A stretch of DNA of 16,061 nt from a virus (taxonomy: Duplodnaviria > Heunggongvirae > Uroviricota > Caudoviricetes): the IMG/VR virus record IMGVR_UViG_2660238318_000012; one strand, 5' to 3'. Made by a program: the position numbers and the translations under genes. The notes beneath the pieces were generated by a model. The model was not told the DNA's origin, searched no databases, and saw only the letters and a program-made list of their open reading frames with translations. How positions within the stretch are numbered: position 1 is the first letter of the stretch; every line of letters starts with the position of its first letter. This document shows, piece after piece, positions 10,547 through 13,456 of the stretch.

Positions 10547-12295
10547 TTATAAAAACGCGTCGCACTCGTCTGTTGTTATTGCGTTAGTCTGCGTTACTCC
10601 CTTAACTTTCCGCGTAATATATTCATGTCCGTAAACTTTCGCGGCTGGCTTCATAGCCTTGCCAAAGTCATTTACGTTTAGCGGTTTGCTCCTGCCTGCG
10701 TACGCCATAAACGCCAGATAGACGCGGTAAAGGCTGTTTCTGGTCGTGTACTTCACTGAATCGCCACCGCCGCCCATCATCAGGCCGCGTGCTTCCTCCA
10801 GAAAATTCAGGAACTGGCAAAACTCAATAACCGGATCCGTCTGTTGCTTTATTGCCAGAGCTTCATCACCGTCACGCTGTTCCAGTAGTAAAGCCCGTGC
10901 TTTCTCAGAGTCGGTAAAGTTCGCCAGCAATCGGCGGATAATGACAGGGATTTCAGCCGCAATCTTTTCCGGTAGCTCCCTGTCTTTTTCGGCCTCACTA
11001 ACGATATTGTCGAAACGGAAAATCACGCGACGACGTGCCACACCTCCGGCCCGTTCGGTGAATATCATCGGGTTATTGTTGGTCGCCAGCACCACCGCCC
11101 TGATTACAGCCGTGAAACGCTTTTCGTATTTCGGGTTAATTTCCACGGGGTCACCGCCCGTGATTTTCTTGATGCCCGTTCCTTCGCCTGTATATTTCGG
11201 CTGGTCAGCCAGGACGATAAGACGACTCCCGACAACCTGCGCACGTCCACCAGCATCATCAAGCGATGTCATTTCAGCGCTTACCGTGTTCTGTTTCCCT
11301 GCCAGAAGGCTGGCTATGTGTGTGAATGTACTTTTACCGCTCCCGCCGTCTCCGGTGGCCTCAATAAACATCTGCCAGTCGTACCGGTTCGCCATAATCA
11401 TGTACAGCGCGGCACATATACGCATCATCTTGCGCTGGTCTTTTCCGGCTGCGTGCTCAAGCCATTTATGAAAGTTTAGCGCGTTATCGCGGATGTTCTC
11501 CCCTGGTGCTGGTGGCGTGTACTCAATGCCGTTGTGCGTGGTGATCCAGTTCTCCGGCGTGTGCGGGGAAAATTCCCCCGTTTTCAGGTCAAGCGCACCA
11601 TTGGCGAACGGCAGCAAATCGCCGGACGGCTCGCCCATTGGTTCGGCAATAACTTTTAACGCTTCCACGGCGTTATTGATTACGCGCTTGCTGAAAGTGG
11701 CCCTGTGCTCTGAATAGATCACCACCATTTCGCGGCTAAGTTCCATTGTGCTGACCGGACACCATACCCCGCCGCGCCATACGTGAACGATTTCACTTTC
11801 CTGATGCACACAAACGCCATCAAAGCGCTCGGCAAGCAGCTGCGCGCGCTCACTGTCTGCCATTTGTGCCAGTTGCGTATTTTTCTGCTCCGGCATGGTA
11901 AGCCCTGCGGCAATATTTTCACGCTCAGCATTCAGATAGCGCCGCCAGTTTTCACACTTCTGGACGTGCATTCCTTCGGGGTAAAAATTTGCGTCCTGAA
12001 TATCTGCCGCCGCCAGCTTCTGACCAATCTTTTTGGTCTCCACCAAATCCAGTTCTCCGGCCTGGTACAGCCTTACGCGTTTTTTTCCATCCGGAACAAT
12101 TTTCAGTGCATCAAGTTCGGCAAGCTGATTTGGCCCAAGCCACACAGGCGGCACATTATCGCCGGATGCGGGGCCATCCTGCTCCTGCCATTGTTTCGCG
12201 TGCGACCAGGCATCACTACCCGCAAAGATAATTACCTCTGTGTCTTTGTGTTTTATTCCGCGTGGCTGTTTTTTTACGTTCGGTGCCAGTTTCAT
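10547..12295 (-). CDS. P4-family primase / replicative helicase (pri-rep), 582 aa
   Basis: Walker A GDGGSGKST in the C-terminal half and a primase-like N-terminal half; iteron origin immediately downstream, as in P4 alpha and PICI pri-rep. Confidence 0.93.
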   Translation of the reverse strand: MKLAPNVKKQPRGIKHKDTEVIIFAGSDAWSHAKQWQEQDGPASGDNVPPVWLGPNQLAELDALKIVPDGKKRVRLYQAGELDLVETKKIGQKLAAADIQDANFYPEGMHVQKCENWRRYLNAERENIAAGLTMPEQKNTQLAQMADSERAQLLAERFDGVCVHQESEIVHVWRGGVWCPVSTMELSREMVVIYSEHRATFSKRVINNAVEALKVIAEPMGEPSGDLLPFANGALDLKTGEFSPHTPENWITTHNGIEYTPPAPGENIRDNALNFHKWLEHAAGKDQRKMMRICAALYMIMANRYDWQMFIEATGDGGSGKSTFTHIASLLAGKQNTVSAEMTSLDDAGGRAQVVGSRLIVLADQPKYTGEGTGIKKITGGDPVEINPKYEKRFTAVIRAVVLATNNNPMIFTERAGGVARRRVIFRFDNIVSEAEKDRELPEKIAAEIPVIIRRLLANFTDSEKARALLLEQRDGDEALAIKQQTDPVIEFCQFLNFLEEARGLMMGGGGDSVKYTTRNSLYRVYLAFMAYAGRSKPLNVNDFGKAMKPAAKVYGHEYITRKVKGVTQTNAITTDECDAFL

Positions 12296-12591
12296 TTTTT
12301 ACCCCTGAATACGTTAAGCATCTTTTTTATTTCCTGAATATTGGCGCGTGCTTTCTCCCTGCTGGTTGGTTTACTGCGGGGCGCTGCCTGTACCAGCGTG
12401 AAATCACGCCGGAATTGATAAACAGGCATCACGCAATCATATTCGTAACCTTCACGGCGGTAGGTGATGCGCCGTTCTGCCACGCCTTTAATCGTTACCA
12501 TGCCGCCGTACTGGTCGCGGTAAATATCACCGCGCGTAAATTTAGGGTGAGTGTTGCCACTGGCAGTTAAGCCAGAATATTTAAGTTTCAT
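12292..12591 (-). CDS. Hypothetical protein, 99 aa, translationally coupled to primase
   Basis: Stop overlaps the primase start (ATGA). Confidence 0.65.
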   Translation of the reverse strand: MKLKYSGLTASGNTHPKFTRGDIYRDQYGGMVTIKGVAERRITYRREGYEYDCVMPVYQFRRDFTLVQAAPRSKPTSREKARANIQEIKKMLNVFRGKK

Positions 12592-12596
12592 TATTT

Positions 12597-12830
12597 TTAT
12601 TCTCCGGTGTGTTGTTCTTTATATCTGTCGTGCAATAGATCTATTTCTTGCAGTTCCATTATTACAGGCTCAAGAAGCGTTATTAATGCCGTGGCAATTC
12701 TTGATTTTTGTTTGTCGCGTTCATTGTCGCCAAGTGTTTCAAGCCATATGCGCAATATTTCCAGCATGTTTTCACTGTGAGAAAGTGCAAGAAATGCGCG
12801 GTCTATTGTTTCGTGGTAAATATCACGCAT
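12597..12830 (-). CDS. Hypothetical helical protein, 77 aa
   Basis: ORF with GGGG RBS, 5 nt from the next gene. Confidence 0.6.
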   Translation of the reverse strand: MRDIYHETIDRAFLALSHSENMLEILRIWLETLGDNERDKQKSRIATALITLLEPVIMELQEIDLLHDRYKEQHTGE

Positions 12831-12899
12831 ATTAATCCCCGTCCGTCGTTTTTCTTAAAATAACCTCTGTCACGAAATCAGCATAATCGGCGGCGATAT

Positions 12900-13052
12900 T
12901 CAGTACATCAAGCCCGTTGATTTATATTCTCTCGTGGAAAGTAAGAAAAAAGCCGCTCTAATAAGTTCTGGCATTGACGAAAGCGCATCAGCCGCATCAT
13001 CAGGAACGCCGGAAAATTCCTGTTTCAGGGAATTAAAACGATCATCACGCAT
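12900..13052 (-). CDS. Hypothetical small protein, 50 aa from ATG 13052 (longest ORF to 13100); start lies just after a G8 tract
   Basis: ATG overlaps the stop of the upstream gene (ATGCGTGA); the G8 run acts as an SD-like sequence. Confidence 0.4.
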   Translation of the reverse strand: MRDDRFNSLKQEFSGVPDDAADALSSMPELIRAAFFLLSTREYKSTGLMY

Positions 13053-13266
13053 AACCCCCCCCATTTTCACAATCGGCAACAAGAATATTTTTAGCGTCAT
13101 TCAGTGACCGCGTTGCGATGTATCGGATACATTCCAGGGCGAACTGTGTCCGGTCTTTCTGTTCTTCTCCCTGCGCAAGCTCTGCCGTGCATTCAATATC
13201 AATAAGCGCGTGCATCAGCGTAGTGAGTGCGGCGGCTGCTGCGTTCGGTGTGGTTTTATTGTGCAT
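13045..13266 (-). CDS. Hypothetical protein, 73 aa (longest ORF to 13308)
   Basis: ATG at 13264-13266 overlaps the stop of the upstream 66-aa gene; ends GGGYA within the G8 tract. Confidence 0.5.
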   Translation of the reverse strand: MHNKTTPNAAAAALTTLMHALIDIECTAELAQGEEQKDRTQFALECIRYIATRSLNDAKNILVADCENGGGYA

Positions 13267-13456
13267 AGGTTTCCCCCTGACGAATACGGGCGGCGAATAC
13301 AGCAACACAACCGGACGGGCAACGGCTACGCGCTTCGCGTTCCGTCCAAGCGGTTACGTGGATGATTTGGGATTCTCCGGCACTCAGTGCCAGAAAACGC
13401 CACACAAAGGCCGTTTGTGTGTGTACAAGGTGTGGTATATGATTTACGGCAACCAT
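13256..13456 (-). CDS. Hypothetical protein, 66 aa, first gene of the replication operon
   Basis: Strong AGGAG RBS 5 nt upstream of ATG 13454-13456; the longer track ORF (to 13558) would run through the operator and promoter. Confidence 0.5.
   Translation of the reverse strand: MVAVNHIPHLVHTQTAFVWRFLALSAGESQIIHVTAWTEREARSRCPSGCVAVFAARIRQGETYAQ

Follow-up and report, generated by a model that had tools for sequence, protein, structure and literature searches.

Why should a run of eight G residues lie exactly at the junction of two small genes in a phage satellite? The 16,061-nt stretch of DNA analysed here (IMG/VR record IMGVR_UViG_2660238318_000012; hereafter the window) holds, by its gene content, the early (regulation and replication) operon and the rest of a capsid-forming phage-inducible chromosomal island (cf-PICI), integrated by phoQ in Shigella flexneri. 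Five small open reading frames (ORFs) of 66, 73, 50, 77 and 99 aa, all on the minus strand and within the interval that the initial annotation had given for them, lead into the primase gene, and a C8/G8 homopolymer (13055-13062) sits at the junction of the second and third. That annotation had proposed three explanations, namely translational coupling, a frameshift error, or a phase-variable switch. Comparison across related loci shows a tract that is a hotspot of mutation in nature and not a demonstrated switch, and translational coupling appears, from the arrangement of the genes, to be the best supported of the three options. In the account that we consider probable, if by no means secure, a slippage-prone Shine-Dalgarno (SD) homopolymer stands at a coupled junction, its length drifts, and all three resulting frames are tolerated. 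Stop and start codons of successive small genes overlap or abut, and each downstream SD would lie within the preceding gene, which would provide translational coupling; replication slippage alters a long mononucleotide run such as this one far more often than ordinary sites mutate; as ORF3 keeps its ATG and its G-run at every length, only the C-terminus of ORF2 is affected; and split, fused and tail-extended forms, presumably all tolerated, would drift and become fixed by descent, without rapid flipping. The genes and the element type are themselves already known (a cf-PICI early operon, with every protein in the databases as hypothetical). What a keyword search of the literature did not return is a junction, in a widespread satellite, at which a strain-variable long G-run repeatedly makes and dissolves a two-domain protein.

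The ORF2/ORF3 junction

ORF2 (13045..13266, minus strand; 73 aa) encodes a predicted helical protein ending in ...ADCENGGGYA*, and ORF3 (12900..13052, minus strand; 50 aa in the window, where it is truncated) starts with MRDDRFNSLKQEF. The two overlap by 8 nt (ATGCGTGA), and the homopolymer was found, as annotated, in the region of this overlap: read on the gene strand from 13062 to 13055, it supplies the GGG of ORF2 and occupies positions -10 to -3 relative to the ORF3 ATG. Loss of one G would give the reading ...ENGGVMRDD..., that is, an ORF2-ORF3 fusion of about 121 aa in the window, in agreement with the predicted product of a 1-nt change (about 120 aa), and such fusions proved to be common in nature. 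ORF2 matches PHROG 5146 and the N-terminal half of PHROG 2512, and 73-aa proteins identical or nearly identical to it are annotated in E. coli. ORF3, searched as a repaired, frame-restored sequence, matches PHROG 24341 and the C-terminal half of PHROG 2512; intact copies in relatives measure 73-77 aa. In both ORFs variation is greatest at third codon positions (for ORF2, 18/16/32 variable sites at the first, second and third positions), so that both are taken to be coding.

The G8 run is the sole G/C run of at least 8 in the window. On its own it is not beyond chance, as 0.40 such runs are expected on average and 52 of 200 shuffled sequences contain one; its significance therefore rests only on the comparative data.

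Tract length in related loci

We determined the length of the tract in 143 loci (90 IMG/VR contigs and 53 metagenome contigs), using a scan pattern that consisted of TGTGAAAATGGGG, 0-10 arbitrary bases and TTATGCGTGATGATCG, and that permitted tracts of 4 to 14 bases. The IMG/VR loci comprised 23 with G7, 34 with G8, 18 with G9, 4 with G10, 2 with G11 and 9 with an interrupted run, and the metagenome loci 10, 27, 12, 1, 0 and 3, respectively (pooled: G7, 33; G8, 61; G9, 30; G10, 5; G11, 2; interrupted, 12). Interrupted runs take forms such as GGGGGTGG. G8 is thus the commonest state in both collections, the natural range extends overall from G7 to G12, and tracts shorter than 7, including the G4-G6 that the pattern would have accepted, were absent from all 143 loci. 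The distribution is unimodal and symmetric around 8, with G7 about as frequent as G9 and G11 not enriched over G10; this lack of periodicity gives no sign of a favoured frame. When loci with identical flanks of 200 nt on either side were grouped, 8 of the 18 groups were polymorphic for tract length and 26 of 77 such pairs differed, which indicates that the tract changes faster than point mutations accumulate.

The junction region is matched by 970 of 5426 complete E. coli genomes. In a scan of one genome per species, the ORF3 family occurred only in Shigella flexneri and Escherichia ruysiae, and the comparison is thus not phylogenetically deep. Among the complete E. coli genomes, many BLAST matches start exactly at the ORF3 ATG or stop some 30-50 nt before the tract, so that the junction also acts as a border at which allele types of ORF2 and ORF3 are exchanged in mosaic fashion.

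Length differences are real and follow lineage

Homopolymers are error-prone on the 454, Ion Torrent and Nanopore platforms, and machines of this kind lie behind some of the IMG and RefSeq assemblies; the window's G8, or the length differences among its relatives, might on that ground be put down to sequencing or assembly errors. This is almost certainly not the case. Other homopolymers of these contigs, namely A/T runs of 6-8 and G/C runs of 5-6 that served as controls, were nearly invariant, with A8 retained in 19 of 20, T7 in 28 of 28, and G5 runs in 10-25 of 10-25. Metagenome assemblies, whose SPAdes-type contig names are in short-read style, showed the same spread of lengths as isolate-derived contigs, and the Sanger-finished genome of E. 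coli 042 carries G10, with an annotated 155-aa fusion. The G8 of the window recurs identically in an independent complete genome, that of S. flexneri SFBU1023. Together with the consistency of lengths within lineages described below, these observations show that the variation in tract length is real mutation and not read error. The frameshift error envisaged by the initial annotation was accordingly not found at the tract, where G8 is the commonest natural state; a real frameshift does exist, elsewhere, within ORF3.

The states of the tract are fixed by lineage. With a 307-nt G7 allele as query, the 60 best of the listed complete genomes were all 100% identical to it and all G7. Most of these at least 60 G7 genomes are labelled O157:H7 or O145(:H28), and they include O157:H7 strains TW14359, EC4115 and 493/89; the total number of complete G7 genomes, estimated from evenly spaced sampling of the ranked matches, is about 210. 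Among the matches listed, every record labelled O157:H7 carries the G7 (fused) allele; EDL933 itself was not among them. The G8 version of the same 307-nt allele was matched exactly by 14 genomes, including all seven complete genomes of O55:H7, the flanks of which are 100% identical to those of the G7 allele. Strains Nissle 1917 and ATCC 25922 and their relatives share a G8 allele. Fixation of G7 across the O157:H7 radiation and of G8 across O55:H7 argues against fast switching. For strain typing, the change from G8 to G7 marks the transition from O55:H7 to O157:H7.

Split, fused and tail-extended forms

The length of the tract sorts the loci into three states: (i) G8 and G11 (length mod 3 = 2) give two coupled genes with the 8-nt overlap, (ii) G7 and G10 (length mod 3 = 1) give an in-frame ORF2-ORF3 fusion of 144-156 aa, and (iii) with G9 and G12 (length mod 3 = 0) ORF2 ends in ...GGGLCVMIVLIP* and ORF3 retains its own ATG, a 9-residue tail, LCVMIVLIP, replacing the final YA of ORF2 for a net gain of 7 aa. 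The split state accounts for about 50% of the loci, the fused state for 27% and the tail-extended state for 24%. In all three frames the body of ORF2 persists, as do the ATG and the G-run of ORF3, and only the C-terminus of ORF2 differs. The locus is consequently annotated in different ways: depending purely on tract length, the NCBI pipeline calls two proteins, one protein, or a 'frameshifted' pseudogene.

The last of these calls would be apt if the real gene were the fusion of about 145-155 aa, with the G8 and G9 alleles, that of the window included, as its frameshifted pseudogenes. In OZ547136 (G9), for example, the Prokaryotic Genome Annotation Pipeline (PGAP) reports one 'frameshifted' coding sequence across both ORFs. 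Fused proteins are, moreover, numerous: a protein search returned 389 relatives, and the best 120 listed are nearly all full-length fusions, mostly of 144-155 aa, with E. coli as the source of nearly every one; individual fusion clusters are in some cases present on 150-260 contigs; and PHROGs holds the fused family (2512) beside separate ORF2 (5146) and ORF3 (24341) families. The visible decay of the window's own element (see below) would fit as well. We nevertheless regard this explanation as quite improbable. The commonest state in both collections is a split one, with a textbook ATGnnTGA coupling overlap and a strong predicted SD. In a profile search of 1.84 billion representative sequences, only 55 clusters (at 50% identity) matched, and these diverged relatives are overwhelmingly separate, most ORF3 relatives having the Met of MRDD as their first residue and most ORF2 relatives ending at the junction; in 33 fused proteins compared, this Met never varies. 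From these cluster boundaries and the invariant internal Met, we infer that separate genes are the ancestral layout. The ancestral-type O55:H7 is split and the derived O157:H7 fused, and ORF3 also pairs with another upstream gene.

The fused form, for its part, is probably compatible with satellite function. EcCIEDL933, the prototype functional cf-PICI, comes from an O157:H7 strain and is the only element for which helper-phage-dependent induction and transfer were experimentally demonstrated (bioRxiv 10.1101/2022.09.08.507074); by analogy, since all listed O157:H7 genomes have G7, the mobilisable element would have carried the fusion. The prototype for experimental work would thus probably represent the fused form, and many natural elements the split form.

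The tract as a probable ribosome-binding element

Judged by its position and its pairing potential, the G8 run, which falls within the final codons of ORF2, is probably the SD element of ORF3. Its predicted duplex with the anti-SD sequence at the 3' end of 16S rRNA (-11.1 kcal/mol) is the strongest in the operon, the others ranging from -6.2 to -9.4 kcal/mol and likewise involving G4-G5 runs. In contig L003, a sister allele of ORF2 has CAGGAGGTG at the equivalent junction and the overlap ATGCATAA, of the same 8 nt (the whole junction reads CAGGAGGTGCACCATGCATAA), which places a canonical SD, AGGAGG, at the orthologous site. Distant homologs of ORF2 end in ...QEV(H/G)HA*, without a glycine run. 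Separate homologous genes lacking the tract, which the initial annotation would have counted against its proposal, were thus encountered only among distant relatives, with the canonical SD in its place. The stop and start codons of ORF2 and ORF3 overlap, the SD-like element lies inside the upstream gene, and both the overlap and the arrangement are conserved in homologs, as in coupled pairs of the ATGnnTGA type. Unlike in ordinary coupled genes, the putative SD of ORF3 is a long homopolymer and not AGGAGG, which would make the junction mutationally unstable and allow natural fusion alleles to arise.

ORF3 also occurs in a second architecture, in which a different gene of about 121 aa (MHNLSISDLNS...VIQGGKHA*) precedes it and the two are linked by a separate G-run with a 5-nt spacer. 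The junction reads GTCATTCA-G(n)-T-AAAC-ATG (contigs L003, 3150-3230, and L150, about 2950-3010; loci L151-L202), and among 54 such loci we counted G6 in 37, G7 in 10 (4 with the T and 6 as G7 without it), G8 in 3, G5 in 1, G9 in 1 and G10 in 2. Split, fused (192-203 aa) and third-frame states are again produced. The G-run thus appears to travel with the 5' end of ORF3, whichever the upstream partner. With the 2-nt spacer about 8 G are required to reach -10, and 6 G extend to -11 when the spacer measures 5 nt; the shorter G6 run is also the less polymorphic, as length-dependent slippage predicts. The natural fusion of ORF3 to two different upstream partners suggests a small helical domain that acts jointly with the protein encoded upstream of it or as an attachment to that protein.

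Both tRNA-Gly and RNA polymerase can in principle slip on a G-run, and part of the product might be a fusion made at a set ratio by programmed recoding, either +1 ribosomal frameshifting or RNA-polymerase slippage on G8. A +1 shift on G8 would give exactly the natural fusion ...ENGGVMRDD, and fusions are viable in nature. Yet folding predictions show no stimulatory structure near the site (z = +0.45), the zero frame presents neither a slow codon nor a stop codon at the run, and ORF3 has a strong start site of its own. All three products are already available from alleles differing at the DNA level; the data can be explained without recoding, and we hold it very unlikely.

Hotspot or switch

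The tract does resemble the poly-G contingency loci of Campylobacter, Neisseria and Haemophilus, in that it has 7-12 G, varies among isolates, shifts frame and mutates faster than its flanks; a homopolymer of at least about 7 bases, in or next to a coding region and polymorphic in length, is what such loci present (here G7-G12; 143 loci). Rapid, reversible changes of the poly-G could, in this manner, let a satellite population hedge among the split, fused and tail-extended versions of an early protein pair, and would alter the dealings of the satellite with helper phages or with the host. Several observations are in keeping with such a contingency locus: the variation from G7 to G12 recurs in two independent collections, identical flanks go with different lengths, about 92% of loci, in alleles that have diverged, possess an unbroken run, the architecture is repeated with a second upstream partner, and a further variable poly-G is found in an ORF4-family allele. 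Against it, clones keep their state, over hundreds of genomes in all (G7 in some 210 of O157:H7/O145:H28, G8 in all seven of O55:H7, and G8 in the Nissle 1917/ATCC 25922 group). Phase-variable loci turn genes on and off, and here no length abolishes a gene, the ORF3 ATG and SD and the ORF2 body persisting throughout. Lengths show neither 3-periodicity nor enrichment of a frame, and the shorter G6 tract is proportionally less variable, as simple slippage predicts. The tract further differs from the loci named above in lying at a gene junction, where it doubles as a putative ribosome-binding site. Hosts of the E. coli/Shigella type are, unlike in that comparison, normally proficient in mismatch repair. 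A contingency function thus seems to us unlikely, though worth serious consideration; of the phase-variable option, the striking and real polymorphism stands, and the stability within lineages and the absence of a preferred frame speak against the rest.

Other points weigh against the account that we favour, in which a slippage-prone SD run merely drifts among tolerated frames. Tolerance of all three frames is inseparable from ORF2 and ORF3 no longer mattering in these hosts. The scan pattern needs conserved flanks, and strongly differing junctions fall outside the length counts. An uninterrupted run is kept in 92% of loci across quite diverged alleles, and at least one further variable poly-G is present in the ORF4-family allele of related satellites, both of which may mean that mutability itself is selected. 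In its general form, the proposal would be that the poly-G runs of Escherichia and Shigella PICI early operons (at this junction, at its counterpart with the second partner, and in the ORF4-family allele) are selected mutators for switching between split and fused products; this we think improbable. If true, a contingency locus would be on record for a phage satellite for the first time, and this in a repair-proficient enterobacterium.

The ORF4-family run was observed on the minus strand of contig L030, about 330 nt downstream of the ORF3 ATG, and in 9 other loci, as a variable CATGCCGAACA-G(5,7,8,9)-ATTTATTTTCTG within a divergent allele beginning MDKIPFDVLIHSENALN..., where a change of length would truncate the protein. 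At least two more variable G7/G8 sites lie elsewhere in these loci; a third, G7 in 5 of 5 loci, is invariant.

Truncation of ORF3 and decay of the window's copy

In the window, the tract itself is in the commonest, split state, and ORF3 has been broken independently. Comparison with contigs L001 and L002, and a three-frame translation of the window, located an inactivating 1-nt deletion at 12913..12915 (minus strand), where the window has GGG and intact relatives have GGGG, after which the reading frame stops at ...STGLMY*. The rest of the C-terminus survives out of frame as the remnant LDVLNIAADYADFVTEVILRKTTDGD* (12832..12912, minus strand), the frame-0 translation of which corresponds to the intact 73-aa ORF3 of L002; its TAA (12834..12832) lies 1 nt ahead of the ORF4 ATG. 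E. coli PBP8 and ATCC 25922 have an intact 73-aa ORF3, with a C-terminus equal to this out-of-frame remnant and a stop 1 nt before the ORF4 ATG. The 50-aa ORF3 is therefore a truncated gene, and the 69-nt gap between ORF3 and ORF4 is its dead tail. The same truncation is present in contig L089 and in S. flexneri SFBU1023, showing it to be inherited and not a read error.

A second lesion was identified in the major capsid gene (8888..7683, minus strand), where a TGA at 8015..8013 takes the place of the TGG (Trp) found in the 98%-identical L041 and splits the major head protein into ORFs of 291 and 109 aa. By its sequence this satellite copy is probably unable to build capsids, and the cf-PICI of the window is probably defective. 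With the 1-nt deletion in ORF3 and the capsid nonsense codon, the satellite as a whole is decaying. An apparent frameshift in the portal gene was examined and rejected: at 6106..6192 the sequence is masked in the database by a run of 87 N, against 43 nt in L041, and this mimics a frameshift between the portal ORFs 7069..6101 and 6104..5814.

The other genes of the early operon

The first gene, ORF1 (13256..13456, minus strand; 66 aa), has its SD, AGGAG, 5 nt upstream, and is Icd-like by its match to NCBIfam NF033153 (phage_ICD_like; 64.6 bits against a cutoff of 25); its counterpart in RefSeq relatives is likewise annotated as Icd-like, and inhibition of cell division is only a putative function. 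ORF4 (12597..12830, minus strand; 77 aa) matches PHROG 2196 (E = 8e-42), with identical or nearly identical proteins annotated in E. coli, and ORF5 (12292..12591, minus strand; 99 aa) is a DUF4222 protein (Pfam PF13973, E = 2e-24; PHROG 285). The last gene encodes a primase/D5-like helicase of 582 aa (10547..12295, minus strand; Pfam D5_N, DUF5906 and Pox_D5), which also matches TIGR01613, the P4-family primase C-terminal domain (NCBIfam, 110.5 bits; cutoff 108.7). The overlapping or near-adjacent junctions first described hold for four of the five, namely ORF1/ORF2 (11-nt overlap), ORF2/ORF3 (the 8-nt overlap), ORF4/ORF5 (5-nt gap) and ORF5/primase (4-nt overlap, ATGA, with the ORF5 stop over the primase start); the exception is ORF3/ORF4, with its 69-nt gap. 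The number of small genes between the Icd-like and the replication genes ranges from 4 to 6 among elements.

A role of these genes in helper derepression, as antirepressors, had been suggested by likeness to the left operon of P4. No match to any such function, whether of the P4 left operon or of an antirepressor, was obtained for any of the five small proteins in Pfam, NCBIfam, PHROGs or PADLOC (in PADLOC none of the five matched at all), and a profile search of the PDB returned nothing at E <= 1. An AlphaFold2 model of the fused protein, built from a 33-sequence alignment, was of low confidence (mean predicted local distance difference test score 53.5, predicted template modelling score 0.39) and all-helical, with a helical hairpin, a disordered linker and then further helices, and was too poor for fold searching. 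The literature on DUF4222, on PICI gene content and on homopolymeric-tract phase variation in E. coli satellites and prophages yielded nothing on these genes or on the tract.

Identity of the element

The window begins with a full-length gene for the PhoQ sensor kinase (1..1461, plus strand; PhoQ_Sensor, HAMP, HisKA and HATPase_c domains) and ends with a tyrosine integrase gene (14832..16061, minus strand; Pfam Arm-DNA-bind_3 and Phage_integrase), which stands at one end of the element and is followed by alpA (14269..14457, minus strand; 62 aa; Pfam Phage_AlpA, E = 5e-18), the gene for the master activator of PICIs, which lies upstream of the operon. The integration point is downstream of phoQ, and the window, which spans from phoQ to the start of the integrase gene, includes the whole element. 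Over 6218 nt it is 99.98% identical to the complete genome of S. flexneri SFBU1023.

Between 2553 and 8888, PHROG matches identified the major head protein, prohead protease, portal, head closure (Hc1) and head-tail adaptor (Ad1) proteins, HNH, TerS and TerL; no PHROG match to a tail or lysis gene was found in the element. With int and alpA, its own replication protein (D5_N, DUF5906, Pox_D5 and TIGR01613 matches) and this capsid/packaging set without tail or lysis genes, in about 15 kb that fit between phoQ and int, the element has the gene set of a cf-PICI. The operon DNA had no match among 50,697 phage records in a distant blastn search.

The likeness to P4 was borne out in one respect, as in both satellites an operon of small genes ends in a primase with the P4-family C-terminal domain; by TIGR01613 the element also has the alpha-type primase of P4-like satellites. 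Identity with a P4-like satellite was nevertheless rejected: unlike P4, the element encodes its own capsid and terminase, the P4-specific genes epsilon, delta, psu and sid have no match in PHROG, Pfam or NCBIfam and the cI RNA none in Rfam, and no homolog of the left-operon genes epsilon, kil, eta or orf151, nor a CI-type RNA, was detected.

The closest counterparts are the EcCIEDL933-type cf-PICIs of E. coli O157:H7, which share with the window int, alpA, a divergent small regulator, an Icd-like gene, homologs of ORF2 to ORF5 including DUF4222, a replication protein and the capsid/packaging module, as well as the same poly-G junction. The O157:H7 alleles differ in having G7, with ORF2-ORF3 as one protein of 154 aa; a further gene, of 70 aa, follows their Icd-like gene, and the primase is replaced by a RepA-family helicase. 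The window differs from them in its split G8 state, its truncated ORF3 and its capsid nonsense codon. The immI operon of P1 (c4 RNA, icd, ant) is similar in that an Icd-like first gene heads a string of coupled genes. In contrast to immI, the window has no c4-like RNA at threshold and no homolog of Ant, and instead carries a conserved hairpin with an opposite-strand T-run upstream.

The region upstream of the operon

Divergently from the operon, a 59-aa Arc/YlcI-YnfO-like DNA-binding protein is encoded at 13586..13765 (plus strand). It matches the Arc-like repressor family PHROG 228 (E = 2e-6), its score of 20 bits against NCBIfam YlcI_YnfO_N is under the cutoff of that model, and a YlcI/YnfO protein is annotated at the same position in RefSeq relatives; from its family and position it is a candidate repressor of the operon. 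The intergenic control region (13457..13585) contains a near-perfect palindrome, TGTGTAGTGACACATTACACA, at 13537-13557, between ORF1 and the Arc/YlcI-like gene, which is a candidate operator, and a conserved GC-rich hairpin (13485..13519) followed on the plus strand by a T-run (to about 13530), just upstream of the ORF1 SD and ATG. The hairpin fold has z = -2.84 on the plus strand, and 3 stem pairs show compensatory changes across 8 variants. Hairpin and T-run could terminate a small antisense RNA over the translation start of ORF1. Rfam returned nothing at gathering thresholds and only chance-level hits in a permissive scan, with no c4-like or CI-like RNA. A weak extended -10 sequence, TGGTATATG, was noted near 13432-13442.

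Further upstream, a 248-aa minus-strand ORF (13465-14211) overlaps the Arc-like gene, has an implausible composition and is probably spurious, and a 109-aa ORF on the plus strand (13890-14219) has no family match. In relatives, the interval between alpA and the operon holds a Rha-family regulator or Icd-like remnants, and appears as a mosaic, possibly degraded spacer. The SD of alpA is itself a G5 run (14467..14463), which in relatives is G5 in 21 cases, G6 in 3 and G7 in 1.

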